Source: Acidobacteriota bacterium (GTDB lineage: Bacteria; Acidobacteriota; Thermoanaerobaculia; UBA5066). From it: DNA of 64,000 nucleotides. This document shows positions 2,038 through 20,940 of this stretch, piece after piece. The position numbers and the translations under genes are program-made. Numbering within the stretch: position 1 is the first letter of the stretch; every line of letters begins with the position of its first letter. The stretch is taken from NCBI GenBank assembly GCA_036759345.1, contig DAIOUV010000006.1:28438-92437 (forward strand). Reading direction: 5' to 3'. The notes under the pieces were generated by a model. That model made no database searches, was not told where the DNA came from, and saw only the letters and a list, made by a program, of their open reading frames with translations.

Positions 2038-2234
2038 AGGTCTTCTACGACGCTCAGGCCCGAACGCTGACGGTCTGGTTTGGCCGGCCGTCGGATGAGT
2101 ATGTGTGCGAGGAAACGGGCGACGAGGTGATCCTGATGAAGGACCGCCTGGGACATGTCATCGGGTTCGAGAAGCTGAACTACGACGCCGACCCCAAAAA
2201 GCTGCGCCTGAATCTTGCGACGGCCGCTGCCTGA
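2025..2234 (+). CDS. DUF2283 domain protein (antitoxin-like partner of DUF4258)
   Basis: 69 aa, MDEVKVFYDAQARTLTVWFG… matches the YDxEADALYIxF pattern of DUF2283. Local GC ~55% versus ~70% for the window. Confidence 0.7.
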   Translation: MDEVKVFYDAQARTLTVWFGRPSDEYVCEETGDEVILMKDRLGHVIGFEKLNYDADPKKLRLNLATAAA

Positions 2235-2347
2235 ACCGCCAAATAGGCTGCGGAAGTGAAAACGGCAGGAGCCAGGGCTCGACTCGGAAGCTCTGGACTT
2301 CCCAGCCGCTTCCGAGTCATTCGCGCGTCGGAACCGTCGTTGCGCCG

Positions 2348-3193
2348 TCAAATGAGCGCGCCGAAGCTCACGGTCGCGATTCCGCGGGCGGCGAGGGCCG
2401 CCGCGACCGCGCCCGATTCGAGCGCTTCGGCCTCCCCGCGCCAGTCGTAGCCCCAAAGGTAGCGCGCGCGGGTGACGTCGTCCTCGTCCCCCGAGTGGAG
2501 CGCGACCTCGTAGTCGCCCTCGGGCAGATTCGCGACGGCGTTCGCGAAGCGCGCGGCCGTCATGTGTCCCGCCTCGGCCAGCCCGAGAACGCGGGGAGGC
2601 TCGGGAAGTCCGGCCTCGTGGAGGAGCCTTCGGCCGCGACTGCCGAGAAGCGCGAGGAGGCGCGCGCGAAGCCGGGAAGGAGGCGGCGCATCCGGCCGGG
2701 CGGGCGGGTCGTCGGCGCGGGGGGCACGCACGAAGGGCACGCGGAATCGCCGCGCGAGCGCCACGGCGACGGGGAAAAGAAACGGGTGCAGATGCAGGTT
2801 CTGATGCGAGTCGAGGTGCGTGACCCGTAGGCCGGCGCCCTCTGCCCGCGCGATTTGCGCCTCCCATTCGCGCTCCACCTCGGCGCTCCGAATTCGGCCG
2901 GCCGTCAGAGCCAGGAGAACAGCGGGCCAGTGAGTTCGGAAGGAGGCGCCGGAAAGGAGCGACGGGACGTCGAGGGGCGCGGAGACCGGTCGCTCGCCGC
3001 CCGTGATGCAGAGGTGGACGCCCGTCTCGAAAATCCCCGCCTCGCGCAGGCCGACCGCGGCCTCGTCGAAGGAGGTGCCGTTCGCGAGAAGGCTCACGTC
3101 CGTGAGGAGCCCGTTCGCGCGGAGCGCGGCGACACGGCGCGTGTGCGCGGGAGCGAGGCCGAAGTCGTCGGCGTTGAGGATGACGCGCGTCAA
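2348..3193 (-). CDS. YdjC/ChbG-family carbohydrate deacetylase (HpnK/LgmC-like)
   Basis: LTRVILNADDFGL…THLDSHQNLH motifs. TTG start whose TTGA overlaps the TGA stop of the upstream GT2 gene. The ORF-track N-terminal 205 aa are Arg-rich overlap with the GT2 gene and are excluded. Confidence 0.75.
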   Translation of the reverse strand: MTRVILNADDFGLAPAHTRRVAALRANGLLTDVSLLANGTSFDEAAVGLREAGIFETGVHLCITGGERPVSAPLDVPSLLSGASFRTHWPAVLLALTAGRIRSAEVEREWEAQIARAEGAGLRVTHLDSHQNLHLHPFLFPVAVALARRFRVPFVRAPRADDPPARPDAPPPSRLRARLLALLGSRGRRLLHEAGLPEPPRVLGLAEAGHMTAARFANAVANLPEGDYEVALHSGDEDDVTRARYLWGYDWRGEAEALESGAVAAALAARGIATVSFGALI

Positions 3194-3972
3194 GGCGTTC
3201 CGCGCCGGCGCCGCTCGGCGCGGATCTCCGGCGCGAGGCGCGCCATTTCGCGCAGGATCGTGAGGACCGTCTTCGGCGAGGAGAGGGTCGAAAGACCGCG
3301 CGTCCGCGGAAAGTAGTCGACGCCCAGCTGCTGGATCACGGCGCCGCGGGCGGCGCAGCGCGCGAGGAGCTCGGCGTCGAAGAAGGACCCTTCGCTGCGG
3401 AGCGTCATGCCAGTCAGGAGGCTTCGCCGGATGAGCTTGCAGGAGAAATTGACGTCCCGGAGGACGATTCCGAAGAGGACGTGCACGAGCCCGTTGTATG
3501 CGAACGAGTACAGCGAGCGCAGGACGCCTTCTCCGGTCCGGTCCAGCCGGTAGGCCGAGATGAGATCCGCCCCGGTGATTTCGGCGGCCCGGAACAGGCG
3601 ATCCGTCTCGGCGAGGTCCCAGGGCAGATCGCAGTCGCTGTAGAGAATCCACTCGTGTCGGGCGGCGGCGAAGCCCTCGCGCAGAGTGCCTCCGAGGCCA
3701 CGGTTCGCCGGTTGTGCGAGCACGCGCAGACGTGGCTCTTTTTCGGCGCGCAGCCGCGCGAGCGCCAGGGTCGCGTCCGTGGAGGCGTCGTCCACGAGGA
3801 CGATCTCCCATTCGTCGACATGTTCCTCGAGAGCCGGAATCGCGACGTCGAGGAGCCGGCCGACGCTCTTCTCCTCGTTGAACATCGGCACCACGAGGGA
3901 CACGGAGCGCGCGGGCCGAAGGGCGCCTGCCGGGCGCGAAACGGGTTCGTCTTCGGTCACGGCCCGAAGCAT
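3190..3972 (-). CDS. GT2 polyprenyl-phosphate sugar synthase (GtrB/Dpm1/ArnC-like glycosyltransferase)
   Basis: VSLVVPMFNEEKS…VLVDDASTDAT…YSDCDLP…DVNFSCKLIRRSLL are typical of Dpm1/GtrB-family GT2. 10-nt gap to the upstream GT-C gene. Confidence 0.8.
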   Translation of the reverse strand: MLRAVTEDEPVSRPAGALRPARSVSLVVPMFNEEKSVGRLLDVAIPALEEHVDEWEIVLVDDASTDATLALARLRAEKEPRLRVLAQPANRGLGGTLREGFAAARHEWILYSDCDLPWDLAETDRLFRAAEITGADLISAYRLDRTGEGVLRSLYSFAYNGLVHVLFGIVLRDVNFSCKLIRRSLLTGMTLRSEGSFFDAELLARCAARGAVIQQLGVDYFPRTRGLSTLSSPKTVLTILREMARLAPEIRAERRRRGTP

Positions 3973-3982
3973 ACCCGGCCCT

Positions 3983-5140
3983 TCACGAGACGAAGTGCCA
4001 GTTCACGAAGAAGGCGGCGCGCAGGAGGAGCAGCGCCGTCGATAGCGCGAGGGCCGCGGTGCGGAGACCCGGACGGTGCTCGAGCAGTTCGAAGAGAAGG
4101 ATGATCCCCGGAAAAATCGTGAGGGTATAGCGCGGCACGCCGTTCGTCGTCCCCGTGAGAAACGCCAGGCCGAGAACGCCCGCCGTCCACGCCGCGTCGG
4201 AGAAACGGCGTCTCCTCGCCTGCAGGACGGCGAGAACCGCGAAGAGCGTGAAGTGCGCGAGGGGCGCGAGCGCCCCCGGATGCTGGAGGAGCGTGCCGCT
4301 CGAAAAGAGCGTGACCTGCTCGCGCACGAACGCCGCGCCCCCGGCGAGGGGATTTGTCGAGCGGTGAGCCCAGGCGCCCATCGAGCGGAAGAACAGACCC
4401 GGCTCCCCCTTGCACCATCCGATGCCCAGTACATACGTCAGGACGCCCGCGAGCGGCGCGACCGCGAGGGCAAAGGACGCCGGGAGCCGCTTGCGCGGAT
4501 GCTCGCCGAGCCCCTGTTCGCCAAACCGCTCGCCGAGCCCGTACGCGAGGGCCAGCGCGGGACCCACGGCGACGGCCGGGGCGCGCGTCAGACCGAGCAG
4601 AACGCCGACGCAGACCGCCGCGAGCGGGTGGCCCGTCCGGATGAACCGAAAGGCGAGGAGAAGCAGCAGGAAGAAAAGCGATTCGGTATACGCGGCCGCG
4701 AAGAAGAACGCCACGGGATAGAGGAGAAGGAAGGGGAGCGGCCCCCGCGCGCGCTCCGGTCCGAGACGCGCGCGACACTCCTCGCCGAAGAGAGGAAGCG
4801 CGAAGACGAACGCGGCCCACGCGACGGCCGTCAGGGCCCACAGAGGGGCGAGCCCGGTGAGAAGCGAGAGTCCCCGGGCGAGCATCGGGTAAAGCGGGAA
4901 GAACGCGTGCGCGGACTCCTGCCCCGGCGCCGGAGGCGGGCCGTAACCGTCCCGGGCGATGCTGAAGTACCAGCCCGAGTCGTAGCGGGCGAAATAGGGA
5001 TTCGCCCCCGCGCCCCATGGCGAGGGGCGCGCGAGCGGCAGAACGTGGACAGCGAATGCGGCCCAGAGGTGGATCAGGGCGAGCCACGCGATCGCCAGCG
5101 CCGCGAGGCGGCGGTCCTCGGCGGCTCGAAACGGCCACGG
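3983..5140 (-). CDS. PIG-V/Mannosyl_trans2-like GT-C membrane glycosyltransferase with non-canonical start (first ATG at 4885 is internal)
   Basis: Multi-TM protein. In-frame translation upstream of the ATG at 4885 gives ...LAALAIAWLALIHLWAAFAVHVLPLARPSPWGAGANPYFARYDSGWYFSIARDGYGPPPAPGQESAHAFFPLYPM, the conserved D..WY..IA..GY…AFFPLYP N-terminal motif of the PIG-V family. No ATG/GTG/TTG lies between the in-frame TAG at 5180-5182 and 4885. The 5' boundary is therefore approximate. Confidence 0.55.
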   Translation of the reverse strand, partial: PWPFRAAEDRRLAALAIAWLALIHLWAAFAVHVLPLARPSPWGAGANPYFARYDSGWYFSIARDGYGPPPAPGQESAHAFFPLYPMLARGLSLLTGLAPLWALTAVAWAAFVFALPLFGEECRARLGPERARGPLPFLLLYPVAFFFAAAYTESLFFLLLLLAFRFIRTGHPLAAVCVGVLLGLTRAPAVAVGPALALAYGLGERFGEQGLGEHPRKRLPASFALAVAPLAGVLTYVLGIGWCKGEPGLFFRSMGAWAHRSTNPLAGGAAFVREQVTLFSSGTLLQHPGALAPLAHFTLFAVLAVLQARRRRFSDAAWTAGVLGLAFLTGTTNGVPRYTLTIFPGIILLFELLEHRPGLRTAALALSTALLLLRAAFFVNWHFVS

Positions 5141-5191
5141 ATAAGGCGCAGAGGAAGAGACGGAGCTCGTGGCTGTAGTCTACGGGCGCCC

Positions 5192-5890
5192 ATGGAACGG
5201 CACGCCGAACCGGCAGCGGGAGCCTCCCTGACTCTCGGAAGCGGGGAATCGGCCGCGCTCCGCAAGGCCGCCGCGCCGCTCACGTTGCCGGAGCGAGCCC
5301 ACCTCGATCTGCGGCTTCGGAGCGCGCCGTGGAGGCGCGTCGTCGAGGCCTTCGAGCCGGACGGCCGCCTCGTGGACTTCGGCTGCGGGCCGGGCCTCCT
5401 CGCGCACCTGCTGCTCCGCGCGGGATTCGCGGGAACGTACCTCGGTCTCGATCCCGACTCCCGCAAGGTGGACCGCGCGCGCCGCTGGCTTCCGGAGTCG
5501 CCTGCGCGCCTCTTCCGGGTAGGGACGGTCGACGCCGTGACCCCGGGCGCGTTCTCGCAGGCGGCCCTGATCGACGTGCTCTATCTCGTGCCGCCTCCGG
5601 AGAGATCCGATTTCCTCGCGCGGGCCGTACGGGCTCTGACACCAGGCGGACTCTTCGTCGCGCTCACGAGCGGAGGGGGGCCGCGCTGGAAGAGGCGGCT
5701 GGATACGGCGCAGGAACGGCTTGCCGTCGGCCTCGGCATCACCCGGGGCAGGGGCGTGGCCACGTGCGACGGCGCGGAGGTCGCCCGGCTGCTCGCGGCC
5801 GCCGGTCTCACGGGGGCTGCCGTCGTCGACGTGGGCCGCGGCTTTCTCCACGGTTTCGAGCTCGTTTCGGCGCGCCGCCCGCTCACTTGA
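5192..5890 (+). CDS. class I SAM-dependent methyltransferase
   Basis: ATG at 5192 (MERHAEP…). VDFGCGPGLL glycine-rich SAM motif. 232 aa. The ORF-track upstream extension from 4076 is nonsense. Confidence 0.75.
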   Translation: MERHAEPAAGASLTLGSGESAALRKAAAPLTLPERAHLDLRLRSAPWRRVVEAFEPDGRLVDFGCGPGLLAHLLLRAGFAGTYLGLDPDSRKVDRARRWLPESPARLFRVGTVDAVTPGAFSQAALIDVLYLVPPPERSDFLARAVRALTPGGLFVALTSGGGPRWKRRLDTAQERLAVGLGITRGRGVATCDGAEVARLLAAAGLTGAAVVDVGRGFLHGFELVSARRPLT

Positions 5891-5962
5891 CGGCGCGTCC
5901 GTTTTTCGAAATCGTTCGGCCTGCGACACCGGGCAGAGACCCGCTCGGCGGGAGGACGGAAG

Positions 5963-8900
5963 ATGCCTTCAAAGGCGCTCCGGCAATGGACGATTCCGCG
6001 CCGCGATCTCGCGGCCGGCGGGTCGGCGCTCGTGCGGCTTTCCCATCCTCTTCTCCCCGCTTTCATCTCGGCGCGCTCGGGCCCGCAAGGCCTCGTCCTC
6101 GGCCTCGAAGGCGCGCGGCCCGCGCCGCTCGGCCGGCTCGACGCTCGTGCCCGTCGGGCGTACCTCGTGAGGCTTGGCTCGCTCGCGGGATTTCTGTCGT
6201 TCCATGGCCTCGGCGTCGCCGCGGAAGACGTCCGGCTTCTCGGCGCCCGGGACGGTGATGCGGACCGGCCGGCGCTGGGCGCGCCCCCGGCCGCCGCGTG
6301 GCGCGCGGTGCCGCCCGCGCTCGCCGTCGCGGCCGCGGCGTTGCGACTCGCCGGGCGGGACGTGCGGGGCGACGACGCGGAAGCGTTGCGCCGTTCGATC
6401 GAGAGCGCCCTCGATCGCGCCCTGCCGCGCGACGTCACGGAGGACGTTCTCTCCGCGCTTCGCTCGGCGGACACGCGCGCGCGCCCCGAGACTCTCGTCA
6501 GTGAGCTCGCGCGGCGGGGAGACGTGGAGCGCACCGTGTCGCACGATCTGCTCGGTCTCGCGCTTCCGGCCGTATCCGTCGCGCGAGGCGACTCGGCCCG
6601 ACCCGCGGTGGCGGTTGGACCCGCCGCGCTCTGGCTCGCCCGCGGAGCCGCGCGCCGGGACGAGCCGCCCGCGTTCCTGGAGTGCGCATCTCTCTCGGCC
6701 CTCGAGGAGGGGGGCGCGCTTCGTCGGCTCGCCCGTGCTCTCGCCGAGGATCCGCGCGCGGCTTTCGTCGAGGCTCTCGCGGACCGAGCGCGGGCTCCGC
6801 GCTCGGTCGACGGACCTCCCGTCGCGCTCGTCGCGATCTCTCTCGAAAGGTGGGACGGGCGTTCGCGCCGCGCGTTCGAGGAAGAGCTTCCCGCCCTCGG
6901 GTTTCGGCTCTTCGCCACGCGGGCCGCGAGTCTCCGTCCCTGGGAGGAGGCGCCGCTCGTCGCCTTCCGGATGAGCCGCGGCGACGCGGCATCGCTTCTC
7001 TGGCTTCCCTTCGCGTCCGTGCACGACGCCGTGGCCGCGTGGCGCGAGGCGGAAGACGCGGCCGGGGCGACGGATGCGGGCCGCTTCCTCGACGTCGTGC
7101 ACGGACTCGCGGCGCGGTTCGATCCCGCCGAGGGGCGCCTCGGCCCCGCGCGGGCGCGGCCGGCGGTGTCGCGCCATGCGGGTCCCGTGCTCGAGGCGGC
7201 CGCGCTCCTCGCCAGCGGTTTCCGGGCCGCGGAAGCCGCCGGGGCCGCGGGCGTCTCCCTCAGGAACGCGGAAGAGGCTCTTCAGGCGGCCGCGGAAGCG
7301 GGACTCCTCGTGCCCGCCCACGCCGACGAATACTCGTTCCGGGACGACGAAGAGCGCGGGAGGATCGCCGCGCGCGTGCCCGCCTCGGCGCGCCGCGACG
7401 CGGTCGCCCGCCTCGAAGACGCGAATGTTTCGGGCATCACGACATCTCGATTTGCCATCGCGTCACTCGCGCGCGCGAGTGCAGGCGACCTCGCGGCGGC
7501 CCGCCTCGCCCTCGACGCGGCCGTGGCGAACGGAGACTCATCCGCGGCCGCGGAACTCCTCTCGCGCGCCCCTCGGACGGAGCCCGATCTCGGGCGGCCG
7601 CTTCTCGCGGTGCGCGTCCTGCAGGGGGCGGGCCGCCCGGAAGGCGCGCGCGCCGTGGCGGGGCGGATCACCGCCGACATGATCTCCAGCATCCCACTCG
7701 ACGAGCGGCTCGCGACGGCCCGCGCGCTCGTGCGCCTGCGCGAGGAAAGTCGCGCTCTCGCGCTCTGCCCGGGAGGCGCGCCCGAGGAGGACGTCGCGCG
7801 CGCCTGGGTTCTCGTCGAATCCAGACGTGACGCCGAGGCCCGGCGCGTGCTCGAGCGTGCTGCGGCGCGCCTCGCGGGGGCGCCCGTCGCGTTCCGCCTC
7901 CGGGTGAAGCTGCTCGGCGCGGAGCTTCACGAACGCGCGCACGACTACGACGCCGCGGGCGCCGCTCTCGCCGAGGCGGAGGCGCTGCTGCCCGGCGTCG
8001 AGGACGATGGGCTCGCGCGGGAGATGGCGCGCACCGCGGGCTATCTCGCGAACGACCTCGGCCGCACCGACGAGGCGATCGTGCTCTTCCGGCGTGCCGA
8101 GGCGCTCTCCCGCAGCGCGCTGGAGCGCGCGGACTCGACCTACGACGTGGCGTACGCGGCGCTCGACGGCGGCCGGTTCGAGGTCGCGGCCCGGGAGCTC
8201 GAGTCCGCCCTGGCTCTTTATGCCGCGAGCGGGCACGAAGAGCGGTACCTCTCGGCACTCGGGAACCGCATCGACCTCTTCCTTCGGATCGGCGACTTCC
8301 CGGCCGCCCGCAGCGTCCTCGAGCGGGTTCTCGCGCATGAGCGCGCGGGAGGGCGGGACCATCAGGTTCTGTTCGCGATCCCGAGCCTTCAGGAGCTCTC
8401 GCTTCTCGACGGAGACGAGGGCGCGGCGGCGGCGGCGTTCCGCGAGGCCGAGACGCGCGGGGCGTCGAGCCCCCGTCACCCGTCCTGGCGGGAGATTCTG
8501 CTCTTCGAGGCGGAGCGCCTCCTCGCGGCGCCGGACCCGGAGGGGGCTCTCGTCCTTCTCGCCCGGGCTGGGCACCTCCCGGACAACAGCTCCCGCACGG
8601 AGGCGCGCCGGCTGCGGCTCGTGGCCTCTGCCTCGCGCGACGCAGGCCGACCCTCCCGTGAGCGGTCGGGGGCCTTCGCTGCGGACGAGCGTGTTCTTCT
8701 CGACGCCGAGACCGCTCTCGCCTCCGGACGCGCGGTGCCGGATGCCGCGAACGCGGCTCTCGAACGCCTCGCGGCGTCCGGCACGGGCGCCGGAACCGCG
8801 GTCCGGCGCGTTCTCGAGTGGTCCGGCCGCTTTCCGGCATTCTTCGCGACGTCGGTGGCCGGCCCGCTCCTGAGGCTCGCGCGTCGCGTCGCGGCGCGGG

Positions 8901-9910
8901 CGGGCCTTTCGCGCGCCGAGGAGCGCTTCTCGCGGCTGCTCGAGCACGGCGCGCCGCCCGAACCTCCGGGGGTACCGATCGCGGCGCCTCCCACCGTTGT
9001 CGCCGAGGATTTCGCCACGCGCGATCTGTTCGCGAAGGCGGCCCGCGTCGCTCGGTCGACGATCTCGGTACTTCTCCTTGGGGAGAGCGGCACTGGGAAG
9101 GAGATCGTGGCGCGTGAGCTCCACCGCCTCTCGGGCCGGCGGGGACCCTTCCTGGCCGTGAACGTCGCGGCGCTTCCGGGCACGCTCGCGGAGGCGGAGC
9201 TGTTCGGCCACGCGCGCGGCGCCTTCACGGGCGCCGACCGGGACCGGCGGGGTCTCGTCGAGGAGTCGTCCGGTGGAACGCTTTTCCTCGACGAGATCGG
9301 CGACCTGCCGCTCGCCCTCCAGGGCAAGTTCCTGCGCGTCCTCCAGGAAGGCGAGGTCAGGCGGCTGGGTGAGACCGCCGTCCGGCGCGTCGACCTCCGC
9401 GTACTGGCAGCGACTCACCGCCCCCTCAAGGAGATGGCCGAGGCGGGTTCGTTCCGGATCGATTTGTACTTCCGCCTGGCCGGGCTCGAGCTCGAGCTGG
9501 CTCCTCTCCGGAAGCGTCCAAGGGATCTCGCGCGGCTCATCGAGGTGGCTCTCACAGGACGCGCGACGCTGGCGCGTGAGGCGGCGGCCGCCCTCAGGGC
9601 ATGGCCGTGGCCGGGAAACGTGCGCGAGCTCCTCGCCGCTCTCGAGGCCGCCGTGGCGCTCGCGGCGCCCGGACACGTCATCGGCCTCGAGCAGCTTCCA
9701 CGCGCCCTGCGCGAGAGGAGCACGGCGCCGGCCGGCGCGGGGTCCTATCAGGACGCGCTCCGGGCGGCGCGTCTCACGGCCATCGACGGGGCGCTCCAGG
9801 CGGCCGGGGGAAACCGGACTCGCGCGGCCCGCGCGCTCGGAATCTCGCGCCAGTCGCTGCTGTACGAAATGAAGAAGCTGGAGATCGATGCGCCGCGCGG
9901 TGGACGCTAG
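5963..9910 (+). CDS. sigma-54-dependent transcriptional activator (bacterial enhancer-binding protein) with ~1000-aa Ala/Leu-rich helical (TPR-like) N-terminal region
   Basis: C-terminal AAA+ sigma-54 interaction module ([23 protein letters not shown]) and Fis-type HTH ([22 protein letters not shown]). GGGAGGA SD 8 nt before the ATG. No receiver domain seen. N-terminal extent is less certain. Confidence 0.65.
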
Positions 9911-9919
9911 ACTCCGCGC

Positions 9920-11965
9920 GTGTCTTCGCGCCGCCGGCTTGGTCTCGCGCTCCTCGCGCTGCTCCCGTTCCTGAACGGGCTTCCATACGATTTCACATAC
10001 GACGACAAGCTGATCATCCGCGACAACGAGCGCATCGCAGCGCCGGCGAAGGTGGAGGAAATCTTCACGACGCAGTACTTCGGCGGGGCGCTCACCTCGG
10101 CGCAGAATTACCGGCCGATCCTCCTCCTGACCTATGCCGTGCAGCACTGGATCCACGGAAACCGGCCGTGGCTTTTCCGGGCGGTGAACCTCGCACTGCA
10201 CGCGGCGGTGACCGTGTCGCTCGGCGAGTGGCTCTTCGCGCTCGGCTTCGCCGCCGGTCCCGCCTCGGCGGTGGCCGCGCTGTTCGCGGTCGCGACTATC
10301 CACGTCGAGGCCGTGACGTCCCTCGTCGGCCGCGCCGAGCTCCTCGCCTCCTTGCTCGTCTTCGTCGTGGCGCGCCTCTGGCTGCGCGCGACGCGCGAAG
10401 GCCGCATCGCGCCAAGGCCCTATGGGGCCGCGCTCGGCCTCTTCCTTCTCGCGGTGTTCGTCAAGGAGAACGCGATCGTGGCGCCGGGCGTCGTCGTCCT
10501 CGGCGAGCTGTTCCGCGGCGGACGCGGCCGATCGCCGCGGGCGGCGTGGAGCGGCCTTTCCAAAGCGGCGCGCTGGGCTCTCGCGGGATTCGCCTTTCCG
10601 ATCGCTGTCCTCTTCGCCGTGCGTCTCATCGTCATCAAGGGGTTCCTCATTTCGAAGGAAGCGGGAGTCTTCGAGCTCGAGAACCCTCTCGTCGTGCTTG
10701 CGTTTCCCCTGCGGGCCGCGAATGCCCTCGGCCTCGGCCTGCGCTATGTCTCGAAGACGTTCCTGCCGATTCACCTCTCGGCCGACCACTCTGCCTACGC
10801 CTTGCCGCTCGCACGCTCTCTGCGCGACCCCGTCGCCTGGTGGGGAGTGGCCGGGGCGATGGCAGGCGTCATCCTCACCCTCGCGCTCTGGCGGAGACGA
10901 CCCCTCGCCGCCCTGGGCCTCTGCCTCTTCGCCGGCGCGCTCTTTCCCGCCTCGAATGTCCCGTTCATCATCGGCACGATCTTCGCCGAGCGTCTCGCCT
11001 ACCTGCCGTCCGCCGGGCTTTTTTGTCTCGCGGTGGGTCTCCTCGCCCCTCCGTCCCGGGAGGTCCCGAGGCCCGCACGGCCCTGGCGCGAATGGCTCCT
11101 CCTCGCCGTCGTCGCCCTGTACGGCGCGGCGACGATCGCGCGCAACCGGGTCTGGAAGGACGACCGGACGCTCTATGCCGACATGGTCGCGAAGGTCCCG
11201 AACTCGGCGAAGGCCCACTACAACGTGGCCTGGGACGCGCAGCGCGAGGGCCGTGGCGCCGAGGCCGCCCCGCATTTGCGCGCGGCCGTCGCGATCTTCC
11301 CGGGCTACTACGACGGCTGGGCGCTCCTCGGAAAGCTGCTCTGGGACGAGAAGAAATGGGACGAGGCGATCGCGTGCTACCGAAAGTCGGTCGAGATCTT
11401 TCCGTCGTACGAGAACGGACGATGGGGTCTCGCTAAGACGCTGGAAGAGTCGGGAAGGATCGAGGAGGCCCGAAAGGCCTTTGAAGACGGTGCGGATCAA
11501 TTACCCGATTCGTATCCGATCGCGTATCACCGGGCCGCGTTCCTCGAGGTTCACGGCACGCTGGAGCAGGCCGAGGATGCCTGGAGCGATGCCGTCGAGA
11601 ACGGCGACGGAGCCGGCTCCGCGCGCCTCGCGCACGCCCGCGTTCTGAGAAAGCTCGAGCGGGAGGAGGAAGCGTGGGACGAGGCGCGGTTCGCCCTCGT
11701 GAACGATCCCGCGAACGGCGCGGCGCGCCGCTTTCTCGCGGAGGGATACGAGCGCGCCGGCCGGACGCTCGCCGGAGGCGCGGAGTGGACGCGCGCCGTG
11801 CGCGGAAATCCGGACGACGAGACGCTCGCCTCCGAGCTTCTCGAGTACGCGGTGCGACACCCCGAGACGCGCTTTCGGGCGCGGCTCCTCGTGCCGGGAA
11901 TCCGCCGGAGCTTTTCAAAGCCCGGCGATCGCCTCGCGAAGGCGCTCGCGGCGCTCGGCGCCTAG
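9920..11965 (+). CDS. TMTC/PMT-like GT-C membrane protein with C-terminal TPR repeats (putative protein O-glycosyl/mannosyltransferase, DUF1736-like)
   Basis: ~420-aa polytopic N-terminal domain followed by TPR-like repeats (AHYNVAW…, GWALLGKLLWDEKKWDEAIACYRKSVEIFPSY…). Starts 10 nt after the EBP stop. Confidence 0.75.
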   Translation: MSSRRRLGLALLALLPFLNGLPYDFTYDDKLIIRDNERIAAPAKVEEIFTTQYFGGALTSAQNYRPILLLTYAVQHWIHGNRPWLFRAVNLALHAAVTVSLGEWLFALGFAAGPASAVAALFAVATIHVEAVTSLVGRAELLASLLVFVVARLWLRATREGRIAPRPYGAALGLFLLAVFVKENAIVAPGVVVLGELFRGGRGRSPRAAWSGLSKAARWALAGFAFPIAVLFAVRLIVIKGFLISKEAGVFELENPLVVLAFPLRAANALGLGLRYVSKTFLPIHLSADHSAYALPLARSLRDPVAWWGVAGAMAGVILTLALWRRRPLAALGLCLFAGALFPASNVPFIIGTIFAERLAYLPSAGLFCLAVGLLAPPSREVPRPARPWREWLLLAVVALYGAATIARNRVWKDDRTLYADMVAKVPNSAKAHYNVAWDAQREGRGAEAAPHLRAAVAIFPGYYDGWALLGKLLWDEKKWDEAIACYRKSVEIFPSYENGRWGLAKTLEESGRIEEARKAFEDGADQLPDSYPIAYHRAAFLEVHGTLEQAEDAWSDAVENGDGAGSARLAHARVLRKLEREEEAWDEARFALVNDPANGAARRFLAEGYERAGRTLAGGAEWTRAVRGNPDDETLASELLEYAVRHPETRFRARLLVPGIRRSFSKPGDRLAKALAALGA

Positions 11966-12492
11966 TCGACGGGCGGGGGGCTCTGCTCGGCGCGCGCAGC
12001 CTCTTCCCGCTCGCCTTCCGTCACGAGGGCGGCCGCGAGCTTCGCGCGGTGGCGCCGGATGAGGTTCACGAGGACCACGTACGTGAGCGCGCCGACGATC
12101 ACGGAGAGGAAGAACATCCCGACCGCCATCTGGACGCCGATGGCCTTCATCGTGGGGCCGGCGGCCGTCCAGAACGACCGCCGGAACATCTCGTGCCACG
12201 GCAGGTGGGCGACGGCCTCGCGCCGCGCACGCAGGAGGAGGCGCCCGATCGGGATCGCGAGGGCCGCGACCGGAGGCAGCGTGATCGGATTCACCACGAG
12301 CGTCCCGAGGAGGACGTCCACCTTGTTGAGCTTCAGGATGACGGCGAGAAGAAGCGCGATGATCCAGTGAAGGCCGAGGAGAGGCGTGAAGGAGATCGCG
12401 ACGCCGATCGCGAAGGACGCCGCGACGGTCTCGGGGGGCGAGTCGCTCCCGAGCATGTGAAGAAACCGGTGCTTGAAGCCTTCAGGGCTCAA
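11962..12492 (-). CDS. DUF2062 membrane protein
   Basis: FAIGVAISFTPLLGLHWIIALLLAVILKLNK…NPIT matches the DUF2062 signature. Overlaps the thiL stop by 11 nt. Confidence 0.7.
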   Translation of the reverse strand: MSPEGFKHRFLHMLGSDSPPETVAASFAIGVAISFTPLLGLHWIIALLLAVILKLNKVDVLLGTLVVNPITLPPVAALAIPIGRLLLRARREAVAHLPWHEMFRRSFWTAAGPTMKAIGVQMAVGMFFLSVIVGALTYVVLVNLIRRHRAKLAAALVTEGEREEAARAEQSPPPVD

Positions 12493-16274: not shown

Positions 16275-16750
16275 TTCGTTCTCCCCGCCCCGGGCACGCG
16301 TCCGAGGAGCGCCTTGAGCTCGTCCACGAAATCTCCGAGGTCTTCGAACCGGCGGTACACGGACGCGAAGCGCACGTAGGCCACCTGGTCGAGCTCCTTG
16401 AGCTTCTCCATGACCTGCGCGCCGAGCTCGGCGGTTGTCATCTCGCGGGGCTCGCGCGCCGAGAGCGCCGCCTCGATCTCGTCACAGACGGCTTCCAGCG
16501 TCGTCGTCTCGACGGGCCGCTTCTCGCAGGCCTTCATGAGGCCCCGGAGGAGCTTGTTGCGGTCGAACGGCTCGCGTCGGCCGTCCTTCTTCACGACGAG
16601 GAGCGGGATCTCCTCGACGGTCTCGTACGACGTGAAGCGGCGCTGGCAGGCATTGCATTCCCGCCGCCGGCGGATGACCGCTCCTTCGCGGCTTTCGCGC
16701 GAGTCGACGACCCGGTCATCGCCCACGCCGCAATACGGGCAGCGCATCAA
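16271..16750 (-). CDS. nrdR: transcriptional repressor NrdR
   Basis: MRCPYCG…CNACQRRFTSYE zinc ribbon plus ATP-cone. ATGA overlap with the upstream fusion gene stop. Confidence 0.9.
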   Translation of the reverse strand: MMRCPYCGVGDDRVVDSRESREGAVIRRRRECNACQRRFTSYETVEEIPLLVVKKDGRREPFDRNKLLRGLMKACEKRPVETTTLEAVCDEIEAALSAREPREMTTAELGAQVMEKLKELDQVAYVRFASVYRRFEDLGDFVDELKALLGRVPGAGRTK

Positions 16751-19700
16751 GCCCCGCGACTTCCGCGCAGCTTCTCGAGCGTGATCATCTGCTCGATCGT
16801 GCGCAGCGTCAGCTCCGCCTCGCCGAGCTCGCGGAGCCCCGACCAGTCGCGCCGCAGCTCACGCGAAAGCGAATCGGGCAGCGTTCGGAGCCAGCCCTCG
16901 ATCCTGAGGTCGACGAACTCGCGTTTCTCCTCGATCGTCAGCTCGCGCGCGAGCAGCAGGCGGCCGGCCTCCTCCGCGTCGATGACCGTCTGGAGCACGT
17001 TCCACCGGCTGCCGGGACGCTCCGCGCACAGAGCGGCGAACGCACCGCTGCTCGTCTCGCGGATCAGCTCCTCCTCGCGCGTGGTCATGCTCTCGTGCTC
17101 CTTCGGCTCGTCCCAGCTGTCGGAATCTTCCGCGATGTACCGCAGGTACAGCATGGCGAACAGGCACGTCGGTTGGACGAGTTCCTCGCGCACGCGGGCG
17201 TCGGCCCAGAGCGCCGCCGCGGCGCGCAGGCACCGTTTCGCCGTCGTCTCGGCCAGGCGCTTGCCGAAGACCAGCGCCACCGACTCGCTCACGAAAAAGC
17301 TCAGCTCGCTCGCGATGATCTCCCGGTATCCCGGCACGTGCCGCTCCAGGAGGGTCGCGGCGCGCCGGTCGATTGCCGCGAGGTCGCTCGTGACGGCGGG
17401 GAGCCCGAGCGTCGTGCAGCCGAGGTTGTAGTTGATCGCCCGCGGCAGCGTCACGCCCTCGGGCCATGCGTCGCGCAGATCGCGGTTGCCCGGCAGCTCC
17501 CGGCCCCCGCCCCACTCCTCGGGATATTCCGGGATCGAGCGGCCGTAGTTGACGGAGCCGGTCGCGCGGATCCGCACGCGGGTTTGCGGGACGAGCCCGC
17601 TGAACGGCGCGAGGAGCGGGGCGATCCGGAGCAGCGTCTCGGTGTGCGCCTTGACGCCCGCCTCGAGGAGCTTGAGCAGGGACTCCCGGTCCGCGGCCCC
17701 GAGGGTCGGCGCCGCGCGTTTCATGGCGACCGCGGCGCGGAACTTCGACGCGAGTCGCTCGGCCTCGGCCGGTGCGTCGGCCCTGATCCCCTGCATCGTC
17801 ACGCCGTCCGCGCGCGCGAACTGGGCGATCACACCCTCGTGATCAGGGTCGAACCCGCCGCGGAATCCGGCCCGGCCCGCGCCGACGAGGAACGTCACCG
17901 AGGGTGCGGGCTGCTTGATGCGCCGGGCGCGCGCGGCGAGGCGGTGCTCGGCTTCGCGCCTCCCCGCGACCGTGAGTGTGTAGGCCGCGTCGGTCGCGAT
18001 CTTGCCGCTCTGCTCGGCCGTGTCGGACATCGCGACGAACACCCTCACGGTCGCCCCGGTCCCGTCGTAGCGCGTCCTAAAGCCGCCCGGTCCCGGAAGG
18101 TCCGCGGCACCGCGGCCCCTTTCGAGCGCCTGGTAGTAGCCCTCGAGGAGGTCGGGCATGTGCGCGAGAGCGCCGACGTTCTCGACGAGCGGCACGAGGC
18201 GGACGCGCGACACCCGCGAAGACAGCTCCGCGCGACGCGCCTCGGGGATGCGTTCTGAGAGGAACGCATCGATCCGCTCCGGCAGGCCGCGGAAAAGGCC
18301 TTCGACCGCTTGGAGGTAGAGCGTGCCGATCTTGACGACCGCACCGAGCTCCGTGAGCGAGTTGACCTGCGGCACGGTCAGCTCGTAGATCGCGTTCTGG
18401 ACGGGCTCGATCCCCAGCCGTTCGCAGGCGAGAAGGAACAGGAAGTTGGCCCGCGCGACGGCCGCGAGGATCTTGGAGATCTTCTCCTCGTCCTGTTCGA
18501 GCCAGGGATTCGGCACGCGGAAGAGGAGGTGGCGGTCCTGGCCGGGGACGATGCCGTGCCGGAGCAGCGTGAGAACGACTTTCTCGGGGACCTCCAGCCA
18601 GTCGGGGCTGATCTGCCGGCCCTCGTAGTCCAGGAGGACCTCCGTGCACGGCCCGAGAAGGTCGGCAATCGTCTCCTCGAACTCCTGGCGCGCCTCGACG
18701 AGCGGGTTCCACTCGAGGTGCGTCAGCGCGCGTTCCGCACGGTCCGCTGTCCCTTCCGGCGCGGAGCGCAAGGCGCGCGCGAGCTGTTCGGCGCGGTGCT
18801 CCGTGGAGTCCGGGTGCTTTGTCCCGGTCAGGCGCAGCGTCTCGAGGCGCGGATGCTCGAGGAAGCGGCGCCGCGCCGCGGCGAAGGCCGGAACGTCGAG
18901 GGCGTCGAGCGCGGCGTACCCGGATTCCGTGCACACGCTGAACCAGACGGCCTCCTCGATCGATCGCTTTCCCTCATGCGGCAAGGGCGCGCTCGAGCCC
19001 GCATGACCCCGACTCTCGATTCGGGCACGCACGCGGTCCATGAAGACCGCGAGCTCGCTCACGTCCTTCGAGCCATAGGACAGGCGCTGCCAGGTCCCAT
19101 AGCGGGCCGGGTCGCTGCCGGCGAAGGCCGCGAACGGGATGCCTCCGACGCCGCCCGTGAGGAGGAAATCGAAAGCGTCCACGGAGGTCTTCACCACCGC
19201 CCGCTCGCGGACGCCATTCCGGAGCCGTTCGAACGACTCGCCGACGAGCCCGGGAAACGCGAGCGGCGAGTAGAACGTGCCGCCGAAGTCGGTGCGCGTC
19301 ACGCCGAGATGGGCGAGCGCGTCCGCCGCCTGAATCATGAAGTCGCGCCGCTCGCGCATGTACGGGGAGGGGCGCCGGAGCGTCGCGAGCGGGCTCTGCA
19401 GCGCGGCGAGGGCCCAGTCCTGCGCGAGCGTCGAGGGCGTCGCGACGAGCCACGCCGAGAGGTTTGCGACGATCTCCCGCGCGCGCACGCCGCCGGTCTT
19501 GATCTGGTCGGACAGCACCATCCAGCACGCGCGCGTGCCGGTCGACGCCCCGAACATGTCCATCTTCGACAGGCCGGACAGCGTGACCACCCAATCGCGC
19601 CACTCGGGGTCGGCGAACGCCGGGTTGACGAACGAGCCGACATAGTCGAGGCGCTGGTAGACCGAGTCGTAAAGCACATACACGCGGTGCTTCGCCGCCA

Positions 19701-20289
19701 CGCGTATGAGCTCCTCGACGAGTGCACGAGGGTAAACGCGTCCGGTCGGATTGTGCGGGTTGTTGACGATGACCGAGGAAATCCCACCGCCCTCGAGCAG
19801 GCGCTCGAGCTCCGCAGGATCGGGCAGGAAATCAGGCGGCGTGGTCGGCAGCTCGACGACGTGCTTGCCGGCGCGCTCGATGAACCAGTCGTATTCCCAG
19901 CTCGGACGCGGTACGACGACGCCGGAGCCGTCGGCGCCGAGCACCTCGAGCACCATCGCGAGGCCCGAGCGCGTGCCGGGCGTGAAAATGACCTCGTCGG
20001 GCAGGAAGCGGACGTCCGAGGCGGGATAGTCGAGAAGGCCATCGCGGTTGAAGAACTCGGCGATCTCGCTGCGCACGTCCATCCGGCCCACGGCGGGCCC
20101 GTAGCTGTGGACGGTATTGCGCGTAATGCGCTGCGCCGCCCGGACGACCTCGGGGTGCGGCGCGAAGTCCGCGTTCTTGTAGTCGCCCTGCGTGAGGTCG
20201 AGCGCGCCCTCCTGCTGCACGCGACGCGCGAAGGCGCGCACCAGCGGCTCGGGGGTCGAGAGCGCGCGCGTGGAAAGGCTCTGGGACAT
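16747..20289 (-). CDS. fusion protein: N-terminal class I/II PLP-dependent aminotransferase + C-terminal archaeal-type phosphoenolpyruvate carboxylase (PepcA-like)
   Basis: One uninterrupted 1180-aa ORF. Residues ~1-430 carry the aminotransferase signatures NNPHNPTG, LYDSVYQRL and SGLSKMDMFGASTGTR (PLP lysine). Residues ~480-1180 carry atPEPC-like motifs TGTKHPDS (MSTQHPD-like), DYEGRQI, FRVPNPW, VRLVPLVENVGA and the Gly loop GAGRAGFRGGFDP. Confidence 0.7.
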   Translation of the reverse strand: MSQSLSTRALSTPEPLVRAFARRVQQEGALDLTQGDYKNADFAPHPEVVRAAQRITRNTVHSYGPAVGRMDVRSEIAEFFNRDGLLDYPASDVRFLPDEVIFTPGTRSGLAMVLEVLGADGSGVVVPRPSWEYDWFIERAGKHVVELPTTPPDFLPDPAELERLLEGGGISSVIVNNPHNPTGRVYPRALVEELIRVAAKHRVYVLYDSVYQRLDYVGSFVNPAFADPEWRDWVVTLSGLSKMDMFGASTGTRACWMVLSDQIKTGGVRAREIVANLSAWLVATPSTLAQDWALAALQSPLATLRRPSPYMRERRDFMIQAADALAHLGVTRTDFGGTFYSPLAFPGLVGESFERLRNGVRERAVVKTSVDAFDFLLTGGVGGIPFAAFAGSDPARYGTWQRLSYGSKDVSELAVFMDRVRARIESRGHAGSSAPLPHEGKRSIEEAVWFSVCTESGYAALDALDVPAFAAARRRFLEHPRLETLRLTGTKHPDSTEHRAEQLARALRSAPEGTADRAERALTHLEWNPLVEARQEFEETIADLLGPCTEVLLDYEGRQISPDWLEVPEKVVLTLLRHGIVPGQDRHLLFRVPNPWLEQDEEKISKILAAVARANFLFLLACERLGIEPVQNAIYELTVPQVNSLTELGAVVKIGTLYLQAVEGLFRGLPERIDAFLSERIPEARRAELSSRVSRVRLVPLVENVGALAHMPDLLEGYYQALERGRGAADLPGPGGFRTRYDGTGATVRVFVAMSDTAEQSGKIATDAAYTLTVAGRREAEHRLAARARRIKQPAPSVTFLVGAGRAGFRGGFDPDHEGVIAQFARADGVTMQGIRADAPAEAERLASKFRAAVAMKRAAPTLGAADRESLLKLLEAGVKAHTETLLRIAPLLAPFSGLVPQTRVRIRATGSVNYGRSIPEYPEEWGGGRELPGNRDLRDAWPEGVTLPRAINYNLGCTTLGLPAVTSDLAAIDRRAATLLERHVPGYREIIASELSFFVSESVALVFGKRLAETTAKRCLRAAAALWADARVREELVQPTCLFAMLYLRYIAEDSDSWDEPKEHESMTTREEELIRETSSGAFAALCAERPGSRWNVLQTVIDAEEAGRLLLARELTIEEKREFVDLRIEGWLRTLPDSLSRELRRDWSGLRELGEAELTLRTIEQMITLEKLRGSRGA

Positions 20290-20305: not shown

Positions 20306-20911
20306 TCAGGTGCGGCCGAACGGGAACGGAATCACGTCGCCGTCGCCGGGCGCCTGGGGCTGCTCCACGGCGGCGGGACGGTCCGCGCGCGCGCCGCGCC
20401 GCACCTCGAGAATCAGGTCGCACAACTCGCGCACCGCTCCGGCGCCTCCGGGCTTCGTCAACTGAAGAGTCGCGGCCTCCCGCACGATCTGGACCGCGTC
20501 GGATGGAGCCGCGCCGACGCCCGCGCGCCGCAATATCCCGAGGTCCGGCAGATCGTCTCCGACCGCCACGATCTCGAACGCGTCGAGCGACCAGCGCTTC
20601 GCGAGGAGGTCGAACGCGGCCACCTTGTCGCGTTCGCCCTGCAGGACGTTCTCCTCGGGGATCTTCAGCTCGGCGCACCGGTGCGCGACGACCTTCGACG
20701 AGCGGCTCGAGATGATGCCCAGCCTGTAGCCGAGGTCGCGCAGCAGGACGAGGCCGAGGCCGTCCTTCACGTCGAACGTCTTCCACTCGCGCCCGTTTTC
20801 GTCGAACGTCATCGAACCGTCGGTCAGGACGCCGTCCACGTCGAGGACGATCCCGCGGATGCGCGAGAGGCGGGTCCGGAGGTCGTCGGGAACGATCGGA
20901 TTCGCGGGCAT
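20306..20911 (-). CDS. kdsC: 3-deoxy-D-manno-octulosonate 8-phosphate phosphatase (HAD family)
   Basis: IRGIVLDVDGVLTDG…FDVKDG…AVGDDLPDL matches the KdsC HAD signature. Confidence 0.8.
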   Translation of the reverse strand: MPANPIVPDDLRTRLSRIRGIVLDVDGVLTDGSMTFDENGREWKTFDVKDGLGLVLLRDLGYRLGIISSRSSKVVAHRCAELKIPEENVLQGERDKVAAFDLLAKRWSLDAFEIVAVGDDLPDLGILRRAGVGAAPSDAVQIVREAATLQLTKPGGAGAVRELCDLILEVRRGARADRPAAVEQPQAPGDGDVIPFPFGRT

Positions 20912-20940
20912 GTGTTCGGGAGATTATGCCCCGCCAACCG

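Follow-up and report, generated by a model that had tools for sequence, protein, structure and literature searches.

In the genome of an uncultured soil Acidobacterium, we found a four-gene cassette that encodes a methyltransferase (MT), a small glycosyltransferase with a predicted GT-C fold (GT-C1), a GT2 glycosyltransferase and a YdjC-family de-N-acetylase, and that on balance appears to assemble an amino sugar on a lipid carrier in the membrane, for attachment to the cell envelope (probability about 0.55). The cassette lies in a 64,000-nt stretch of DNA, the whole of which is referred to here as the window (Table 1). It resembles the Arn, Lgm and NaxD systems, from which it differs in the PIG-V-family final GT-C and the added MT. 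The established part of this account is which genes are present, their family affinities and folds, and their conserved linkage; the chemical steps, the sugar and the acceptor are proposals. A sigma-54 enhancer-binding protein (the activator) and a TMTC-like glycosyltransferase (GT-C2) next to the cassette form a separate neighbouring unit.

Table 1. Features of the cassette and its neighbouring unit, in window coordinates.
Feature	Coordinates	Strand	Remarks
YdjC-family de-N-acetylase	2348–3193	-	TTG start, 281 aa
GT2 glycosyltransferase, ArnC/Dpm1 type	3190–3972	-	260 aa
GT-C1, divergent PIG-V/Mannosyl_trans2 branch	3983–5179	-	Coordinates of the open frame, ~390 aa
Nucleotide-conserved motif CCGTAGACTACAGCCACG	5168–5185	-	Putative GT-C1 operon promoter
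MT, class I SAM-dependent methyltransferase	5192–5890	+	232 aa, soluble, divergent from GT-C1
Sigma-54 enhancer-binding protein (activator)	5963–9910	+	1315 aa
GT-C2, TMTC/PMT-like GT-C	9920–11965	+	681 aa

All six genes described in an earlier note on this DNA are present, and YdjC, GT2, the activator and MT match their families clearly. The same DNA was found in four independent assemblies, with 0–1 differences across 13,972 bases; the related genomes among the loci retrieved are all metagenome-assembled. The start of YdjC overlaps the stop of GT2 by 4 nt (TTGA), GT2 and GT-C1 are 10 nt apart (3973–3982), and GT-C2 starts 9 nt past the activator stop.

The GT2 matches PF00535 in Pfam (E = 1.3e-23), and its best NCBIfam matches are ArnC (1.8e-15), PgfS and Dol-P-hexose transferase. 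Among solved structures in the PDB, three of ArnC come out best (E = 1.7e-13), together with the archaeal Dol-P-Man synthase 5mlz, which aligns full length, over residues 22–246. These ArnC and Dol-P-Man synthase matches bear out the Dpm1/GtrB/ArnC likeness proposed in the earlier note; by sequence the enzyme is closest to polyprenyl-phosphate sugar synthases, and it would be a polyprenyl-phosphate HexNAc synthase. The YdjC protein matches PF04794 over profile positions 1–265 of 266 (E = 1.3e-48), contains NADDFG and HLDSH motifs, and has the PDB relatives 2i5i, 7vi8 and 8jqe; its best NCBIfam match, HpnK (4e-36), falls under the cut-off of that model. The protein is complete, and its translation is coupled to that of GT2, as expected of the deacetylase with a TTGA overlap that the note had described. 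Both proteins score far under the curated cut-offs (57 of 529 bits for GT2 against ArnC, 125 of 233 bits for YdjC against HpnK), and neither is therefore orthologous to the characterised enzyme. No transmembrane helix or signal sequence was found in GT2, YdjC or MT, which places YdjC in the cytoplasm.

The MT matches Methyltransf_23, 25 and 11 in Pfam, and no specific solved or characterised relative of it was found. It is 35% identical to the MT of a paralogous cassette on the same contig. Previously assigned to the regulatory side of the locus, it directly adjoins the PIG-V-like GT-C in cassettes of types A, A′, B and C (see below) and is rather a core member of the module.

The GT-C1 of the window falls under the PF04188 cut-off in Pfam (E = 0.019; 14.8 against 22.4 bits), but its homologues do match this family. 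Confident structure models were obtained for both GT-C1 and GT-C2, and their best PDB matches are all GT-C. Judging by its homologues and modelled fold, GT-C1 belongs to a divergent branch within the PIG-V family of Pfam, so that the earlier PIG-V-type assignment stands on these grounds though not on the protein's own sequence. No sequence relation of GT-C1 to the ArnT/PMT clan was detected. Its invariant catalytic-loop residues are intact. Characterised PIG-V relatives move mannose and not amino sugars, which counts against the amino-sugar reading of GT-C1.

Across 80 Acidobacteriota loci surveyed, we observed a conserved module of MT, PIG-V-like GT-C, ArnC/Dpm1-like GT2 and YdjC, whose genes come in two different orders and whose genomic surroundings are unrelated. 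The MT is divergent from GT-C, GT2 and YdjC in 23 loci; another eight are rearranged (type A′), with GT2, YdjC and MT convergent on a GT-C of ~40% identity and with LigD and Usp as flanks. Adjacency of YdjC and GT2 is kept in 31 loci, and the expected conservation of GT-C1, GT2 and YdjC in related genomes extends to a rearranged order in another context. Sister clades of the GT-C family have cassettes (types B and C) with MT, an ArnC/AglJ-like GT2 and, in place of YdjC, an ArnB-like DegT 4-aminotransferase (2e-61); one such DegT-type cassette is located on the contig to which the window belongs. The GT-C clade matches the cassette type in a tree built from 81 homologues. The replacement of YdjC by DegT indicates a constant logic, in which an enzyme that generates an amine is combined with a lipid-phosphate GT2, an MT and a GT-C. 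The cassette is missing at about 22 of the 80 GT-C loci, and the GT-C family therefore also works with donors made elsewhere.

In the pathway that we propose, the soluble GT2 would transfer HexNAc from a nucleotide sugar to polyprenyl phosphate at the cytoplasmic face; the acceptor is suggested by family resemblance and the sugar by the pairing with YdjC. The cytoplasmic YdjC would then de-N-acetylate the sugar in the manner of NaxD and LgmC, a step for which precedent and the translational coupling to GT2 argue. The MT may next modify the lipid-linked sugar, with the freed amine as the most attractive site; we infer this more weakly, and its substrate could be unrelated. A flippase, for which the cassette holds no gene, would flip the lipid-linked sugar, and GT-C1 would transfer it to an acceptor at the periplasmic face. 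GT-C1 has neither a large periplasmic domain nor a carbohydrate-binding domain, and the former absence suggests that the acceptor is a glycolipid in the membrane, lipid A/LPS for example, rather than a protein or long polymer. KdsC and KdsD are encoded 8 kb away, and a Kdo/LPS envelope is accordingly plausible.

Francisella FlmF2/NaxD/FlmK and Bordetella LgmA/LgmC/LgmB modify lipid A with GalN or GlcN (PMC11279074; PMC4993483). The cassette would share their scheme, in which a GT2 makes polyprenyl-phosphate HexNAc, a YdjC-family enzyme in the cytoplasm de-N-acetylates the lipid-linked sugar and a GT-C passes on the amino sugar at the periplasmic face. Their GT-C is ArnT-like (PMT_2/GT83), whereas that of the cassette is small and PIG-V/Mannosyl_trans2-like, the cassette GT2 has no transmembrane helices, and the MT is a constant extra member. 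The ArnB/ArnC/ArnD/ArnT pathway, which places aminoarabinose on lipid A, likewise has a GT2 that makes a lipid-linked N-blocked amino sugar, de-blocking on the carrier and transfer by a GT-C, and its ArnB has a counterpart in the DegT enzyme of the type B and C cassettes. Unlike YdjC, however, ArnD is a member of the polysaccharide-deacetylase family; ArnC carries a pair of transmembrane helices, ArnT is of another GT-C family, and ArnA-like and ArnE/F-like genes are absent here. Three-component systems of extracytoplasmic glycosylation (GtrA/B/X; GT136 pentofuranose; Kelly et al. 2024, PMC11127046) follow the same general plan, in which a synthase puts a sugar on a lipid phosphate, a flippase turns it over and a GT-C decorates an exported envelope glycan, but the cassette lacks a linked flippase, adds a deacetylase and an MT, and has a GT-C1 with no carbohydrate-binding or other periplasmic domain.

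Alternatively, GT2 could put GlcNAc straight on the final membrane lipid, with YdjC as its de-N-acetylase (compare PIG-L and HpnK) and GT-C1 extending the GlcN-lipid with a donor from elsewhere, which we consider unlikely. The eukaryotic GPI pathway (PIG-L, DPM1, PIG-V/PIG-M) offers PIG-V, the only family affinity of GT-C1, and the genes next to GT-C1 encode a Dpm1-like GT2 and a HexNAc de-N-acetylase; HpnI/HpnK, which form the hopanoid glucosamine head group, are a GT2 and YdjC enzyme pair with a GlcN-lipid product. However, PIG-L is of the LmbE family and not YdjC, a PIG-A-like GT4 is absent here, no hpnJ or further hopanoid genes lie nearby, and the Hpn pathway has no GT-C. The GPI deacetylase acts on the acceptor while DPM1 makes Dol-P-Man; the cassette comparisons favour amine chemistry on the donor side. 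GT2 resembles ArnC, DPMS and AglJ and gave no match to the HpnI model, and in the sister cassettes the same GT-C family is paired with a nucleotide-sugar aminotransferase and an ArnC-like GT2, which fits donor synthesis and not acceptor priming. We know of no report of hopanoid synthesis in these acidobacterial classes.

The activator matches Sigma54_activat (2e-59) and HTH_8, and no receiver domain was matched in the Pfam search, as previously stated. Its N-terminal ~1000 aa are lineage-restricted, the first 960 aa having matches in no more than 48 cluster representatives out of 1.84 billion proteins, and are followed by the AAA+ domain (GAFTGA at 1086) and HTH_8. GT-C2, which is probably co-transcribed with the activator, has a ~420-aa membrane domain with an invariant DD in the first loop and a C-terminal TPR domain, an arrangement like that of the TMTC1–4/PMT protein O-mannosyltransferases (PMC7801869), although it is bacterial. 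Its TPR repeats, its homologues bearing the TMTC loop domain PF08409 and its predicted GT-C structure favour the TMTC/PMT-like label of the earlier note, but its own membrane domain has no Pfam match, including to PF08409 and PMT_2.

That note had tentatively joined all six genes in one system, in which the cassette is switched on by the sigma-54 activator and the lipid-linked sugar serves both GT-C enzymes. GT-C2 does require a polyprenyl-linked donor, 15 genomes keep all six genes in the same order (GT-C1 identity 72–88%), and an activator homologue lies ≤12 kb from the PIG-V-like GT-C even at 31–57% identity (L069, L077, L078, L079 and L083). We nevertheless think a single system quite improbable. 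Housekeeping aroA is just as conserved in the neighbourhood, so that the synteny is accounted for by common descent; type A′ cassettes lack the activator and GT-C2, which are nevertheless retained in genomes with no cassette; and in L086, a 55%-identity relative, aroA, a phosphoesterase and ABC permeases intervene between these two genes and the cassette. GT-C2-like paralogues of ~70% identity occur elsewhere in these genomes. The -24/-12 elements anticipated upstream of the locus genes did not appear before any gene start, the best match in the 64-kb window reaching 10/12 within the GT-C2 coding sequence. The activator is probably not dedicated to the cassette, and its link and that of GT-C2 are positional only, probably those of mere neighbours. 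Of the glycosylation system in the earlier note, the families, folds and conserved GT-C1/GT2/YdjC linkage hold, but the inclusion of these two members is not supported.

A different promoter is suggested by the motif CCGTAGACTACAGCCACG, which occurs once in the window and holds a -10-like TAGACT (5182–5177), pointing to a sigma-70-type promoter for the cassette, with a conserved ACG six bases on (5170–5168). Its DNA is conserved in 14 related genomes while the codons either side vary, and in relatives of 52–56% identity an equivalent, CCGTAGAGT/TAGGTT, precedes a canonical ATG by ~38 nt. A sigma-70 consensus scan gave no match. We propose this motif as the GT-C1 operon promoter; a leaderless mRNA may also have its 5′ end there.

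The start of GT-C1 had been put at ~5140, where the GTG (5138) is out of frame, and the lack of a canonical start codon had been overlooked. In the conserved frame, no ATG, GTG or TTG lies between the TAG at 5182–5180 and the ATG at 4885, and in none of 14 related genomes does one stand ahead of the first helix and the catalytic loop. Between genomes, synonymous and non-synonymous differences in the 98 upstream codons number 29 and 10, 19 and 9, and 14 and 9 (in the last comparison, both genomes are without a start), a pattern of purifying selection. That GT-C1 is not made full-length here and in close relatives, as a start-less pseudogene or a truncation from ATG 4885 with the cassette defunct or feeding GT-C2, is very unlikely: although in-frame starts are absent from 5179 to 4885, gene callers give only 300 aa from that ATG and near-cognate starts are poorly translated on leaderless mRNAs (PMC8459731), synonymous differences equal or exceed non-synonymous ones, the catalytic-loop residues are kept, and the start-less form recurs in 14 species, an ill fit with decay.

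The window carries a small set of genes whose core recurs, in several arrangements, around relatives of GT-C1, a PIG-V-like membrane glycosyltransferase. All six genes that the earlier note had tentatively joined into one glycosylation system under a dedicated sigma-54 activator are real, as judged by gene-finding and family matches. They encode YdjC, a GT2 glycosyltransferase, GT-C1, a methyltransferase (MT), the activator, and GT-C2, a second, TMTC/PMT-like membrane glycosyltransferase with TPR repeats. Housekeeping genes flank them, with aroA on one side and thiL, a DUF2062 gene and lon on the other, and the G+C content of the window is ~70%. Four independent assemblies (JGI, ENA, Logan) contain the sequence, differing at 0-1 positions in 13,972 bases. 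The closest genomes are metagenome-assembled members of the Thermoanaerobaculia and Holophagales (Acidobacteriota).

Coordinates of the features discussed (window positions unless a numbered locus, L, is given)
Feature	Position	Strand	Remark
YdjC	2348-3193	-	4-nt overlap with GT2
GT2	3190-3972	-	10-nt gap to GT-C1
GT-C1	3983-5179	-	open frame, not a fixed start
Start-less GT-C1 codons	4885-5185 region	-	98 codons
Nucleotide-conserved motif	5185-5168	-	contains -10-like TAGACT
Conserved ACG	5170-5168	-	ATC in one genome
MT	5192-5890	+	class I methyltransferase
Sigma-54 activator	5963-9910	+	1315 aa
Activator N-terminal region	5963-8842	+	~960 aa
GT-C2	9920-11965	+	TPR membrane protein, 681 aa
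DUF2062 membrane protein	11962-12492	-	convergent; 4-nt overlap with GT-C2 stop codon
Aminotransferase-PEP carboxylase-like fusion	16747-20289	-	1180 aa
KdsC and KdsD/KpsF	20306-21918	-	
Paralogous type C cassette	L001 17175-20783		window's own contig, ~4 kb beyond aroA and the window's left end
Group II PLP-dependent amino-acid decarboxylase, type A'	L054 11152-12501	-	directly after MT
ABC-2 type exporter	L086 12784-14755		ATPase and permease, directly after YdjC

The window's proteins were mapped onto 80 loci encoding GT-C1 relatives, all from Acidobacteriota, and representative loci were annotated. Four cassette types could be distinguished. Type A, the window's own, has MT divergent from GT-C, GT2 and YdjC (23 complete loci). 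Type A' (8 complete loci, with LigD/Usp flanks) has GT-C convergent with GT2, YdjC, MT and a PLP decarboxylase, and its GT-C is only ~40% identical to GT-C1. In type B, GT-C, MT, a DegT 4-aminotransferase, an ArnC/AglJ-like GT2 and a small cupin lie on one strand (10 complete loci and 4 more cut by contig ends), and in type C, where MT and GT-C diverge, DegT and GT2 are convergent (6 complete loci, 4 partial). Some 22 loci have no cassette. A GT-C homologue with 44% identity (P0108) sits among housekeeping genes without one. A neighbour-joining tree built from 81 GT-C sequences groups them by cassette type, with one clade for each. Since types A, A', B and C share them, the constant set consists of a PIG-V-like GT-C with a class I MT right next to it, an ArnC/Dpm1-like GT2, and an enzyme yielding a free sugar amine, either YdjC or DegT.

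The GT-A domain of GT2 matches PF00535 (E = 1.3e-23), with VDDAS and DCDL aligned to the ArnC motifs. Its best NCBIfam matches are ArnC, PgfS and a haloarchaeal Dol-P-hexose transferase. Among PDB structures, three of ArnC rank first (E = 1.7e-13), and the Dol-P-Man synthase 5mlz covers residues 22-246, nearly its full length. The nearest characterised relatives of GT2 are, by sequence comparison, lipid-phosphate sugar synthases, with scores far under every equivalog cut-off (56.8 vs 529 bits for ArnC, 16.8 vs 370 bits for PpgS). No hydrophobic segment was found in GT2, so it lacks the C-terminal transmembrane helices of ArnC/GtrB. Human DPM1 and mycobacterial PpgS likewise lack these helices, and their absence therefore does not exclude GT2 from the polyprenyl-phosphate class. 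YdjC matches PF04794 over its full length (E = 1.3e-48, profile positions 1-265 of 266) and carries the Asp and His metal/catalytic motifs NADDFG and HLDSH; its best curated model is HpnK, under whose cut-off it falls. The linkage of YdjC to the GT2 lipid-phosphate synthase and GT-C is kept in 31 loci with two gene orders. The YdjC homologue search returned orthologues of at least 54% identity from the same lineage only, and is uninformative on distribution in other phyla.

GT-C1 itself falls short of the Pfam gathering score for PF04188 (14.8 vs 22.4 bits, E = 0.019). This family is matched by 24 of 42 GT-C1 homologues at E <= 0.01 (best E 6.5e-8), PMT_2 by only one of the 42, and the cassette relatives in loci L054 and L047 reach the PF04188 cut-off. 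A profile of GT-C1 gave no match among PDB sequences. Fold searches were required for both GT-C1 and GT-C2, and by fold GT-C1 is a GT-C enzyme with a conserved acidic residue in its first extracytoplasmic loop. This terminal transferase is not of the ArnT family (PMT_2/GT83), and no profile-profile similarity was detected between the GT-C1 and GT-C2 families. Judging by the neighbouring genes, the probable donor substrate of GT-C1 is an amino sugar on a carrier, rather than Dol-P-Man for mannosyl transfer to a GPI intermediate. A literature search found no described bacterial PIG-V-type system, and we know of no bacterial PIG-V/Mannosyl_trans2 GT-C member with an assigned function.

The enzymatic half of the earlier note, in which GT2, YdjC and GT-C follow an amino-sugar logic, is supported and extended. 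Its other half, which placed the locus under dedicated sigma-54 control and counted GT-C2 as part of the glycosylation system, is not supported: no -24/-12 promoter lies at any gene start, the linkage of the activator to the cassette is inconstant, and GT-C2 is absent from type A' and retained without cassette A. The activator carries a PF00158 sigma-54 AAA+ domain (E = 2e-59) with Walker A and B motifs, GAFTGA at residue 1086 and an HTH_8 domain, and has no receiver domain. Among 1.84 billion proteins, its N-terminal region matched no more than 48 cluster representatives, of which almost all share its ~1300-aa architecture. With no recognisable domain beyond a weak TPR match, this region looks like a lineage-restricted sensor module. 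In GT-C2, TPR repeats come after a GT-C membrane domain. Pfam gave no match to this membrane domain, PF08409 and PMT_2 being absent even at E <= 10; homologues at 47-55% identity carry PF08409, the TMTC loop domain (PMC7801869). The predicted model of GT-C2 (pLDDT 90.5) matches Pmt4, ALG12, STT3B and ArnT over 320-390 residues, as well as TPR proteins, and its profile found TPR matches only among PDB sequences.

Activator and GT-C2 accompany type A in the close clade only. In a relative with 55% identity, aroA, a phosphoesterase and ABC permeases separate them from the cassette; type A' cassettes have neither gene, and three genomes without cassette A (L077, L078, L083) retain both. Their adjacency is explicable by shared ancestry, because aroA is kept in the neighbourhood just as well. 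Two scoring schemes found no -24/-12 site with at least 11/12 consensus in the 64-kb window, where the single 10/12 site lies inside the GT-C2 coding sequence. No -24/-12 element was found upstream of the starts at 3972, 5179, 5192, 5963 and 9920, and a candidate at 5097 (-) was rejected as its GG is lost in relatives.

The beginning of GT-C1 is unusual. In the window, as in 13 related genomes (L005-L010, L012, L014-L017, L026, L030), its frame opens directly after a stop codon, and in this set there is no conserved ATG, GTG or TTG ahead of the first transmembrane helix. Four genomes, the window included, have none of these codons at all before the catalytic YDSGWY loop. The start-less codons are under purifying selection, with ratios of synonymous to non-synonymous differences of 29:10, 19:9 and 25:15, and of 14:9 for a pair of genomes neither of which has a start. 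Assembly error is excluded as the cause of the missing start, the four independent assemblies being identical. Other starts were rejected as well. Translation through the TAG at 5182 would have to begin at a GTG further upstream, which is not conserved. An ATG lies in a CCATGG palindrome that also takes in the MT start, but it is out of frame, and relatives have ATC or ACC in its place. Out of frame, too, is the GTG at 5138, whose NTG owes its first base to the synonymous third position of a Pro codon ahead of a conserved Trp; all four synonymous forms of this codon occur.

What is conserved at the nucleotide level is the motif CCGTAGACTACAG(C/G)(C/T)ACG. In type A relatives at 52-56% identity, the equivalent CCGTAGAGT precedes a normal Shine-Dalgarno sequence with its ATG by ~38 nt. 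We infer that the motif would be a sigma-70-type promoter of the cassette; a consensus scan of positions 2200-6100, which requires a -35 box as well, gave 0 sites. No near-cognate codon except its ACG is conserved. For GT-C1, the simplest reading would be a leaderless mRNA that starts at a non-canonical codon, because this ACG sits exactly six bases past the -10-like hexamer, where the transcript would start, and there is no canonical start. Leaderless mRNAs are known to favour AUG strongly (PMC8459731), which keeps that reading tentative. Since the lack of a canonical start is itself conserved, the gene offers a ready-made case in which to study unusual initiation of translation.

Among experimentally established systems, NaxD/LgmC come closest in logic to the window's cassette: a GT2 produces Und-P-HexNAc, which is deacetylated by a YdjC enzyme, and the resulting amino sugar is passed on to lipid A by a GT-C (PMC11279074; PMC4993483). 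The Arn pathway is built along the same lines. The cassette differs from these systems in having a PIG-V-family GT-C instead of ArnT, and in the addition of MT. Here, GT2 would make polyprenyl-P-HexNAc, YdjC would deacetylate it and GT-C1 would transfer the amino sugar, all of them chemical steps that we infer. Methylation of the sugar, with the free amine as an attractive target, would be the most economical role for MT, because YdjC-type and DegT-type cassettes both place MT next to GT-C. PDB and NCBIfam searches with three MTs gave generic class I matches only, some of them sugar O-/N-methyltransferases, and sequence comparison did not tell N- from O-methylation. GT-Cs that act on membrane lipids, among them PimE and enzymes of the ALG and PIG series, typically have no soluble periplasmic domain. 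Because GT-C1 has no such domain either, a membrane glycolipid, for example lipid A/LPS, is a plausible acceptor. Both KdsC (Kdo-8-P phosphatase) and KdsD/KpsF (arabinose-5-P isomerase) are encoded in the window and score above curated subfamily cut-offs; therefore the organism makes Kdo and probably has LPS, and the two genes fit an LPS-type envelope.

In the boldest reading, the cassette would found a bacterial role, so far uncharacterised, for PIG-V GT-Cs: a strongly cationic hexosamine, first de-N-acetylated and then N-methylated on polyprenyl phosphate, would be moved by GT-C1 onto lipid A or some other glycolipid of the envelope. A DegT aminotransferase would lead the sister cassettes to a like product, and GT-C1 in this clade would be translated from a leaderless mRNA beginning at ACG (AUC in one genome). 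We give this whole a chance of roughly one in five. The occurrence of a PIG-V-like GT-C in four cassette types, together with a lipid-phosphate GT2, MT and an amine-making enzyme, provides a testable hypothesis for an envelope-modifying family in the Thermoanaerobaculia and Holophagales, which are abundant, uncultured Acidobacteriota of soils and sediments. The strategy of Arn/Lgm/NaxD, the known lipid A amino-sugar modification systems, would then also have been realised with another GT-C family, unrelated to the first. If the product is an LPS-borne amino sugar that is cationic and perhaps N-methylated, it would affect surface charge, antimicrobial-peptide resistance and metal binding in these bacteria.

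Several further genes were observed in and around these loci. The window's contig holds a second, paralogous cassette of type C. There, MT and a PIG-V-like GT-C point away from each other, and the GT-C, which shares 31% identity with GT-C1, is followed by genes for a 264-aa protein and DegT; a perfect TATAAT lies 10 nt ahead of the GTG start of this GT-C. The decarboxylase of type A' occupies the same place after MT in L058, L061-L063 and L067 as in L054, and hints at a further amine-related step, absent from the window's cassette; a search for a clue to its substrate returned a generic group II enzyme and gave none. No flippase for the lipid-linked sugar was identified. The exporter at L086, in a relative with 55% identity, is a possible export or flipping component, absent from the window. 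The DUF2062 protein is the neighbourhood's most conserved protein in the close clade (86-93% identity), and its gene belongs with thiL by orientation. Finally, the window encodes an unusual fusion of a class I/II aminotransferase (~aa 20-370) with a PEP carboxylase-like region of archaeal type (TIGR02751, 1e-33, aa 529-1010).
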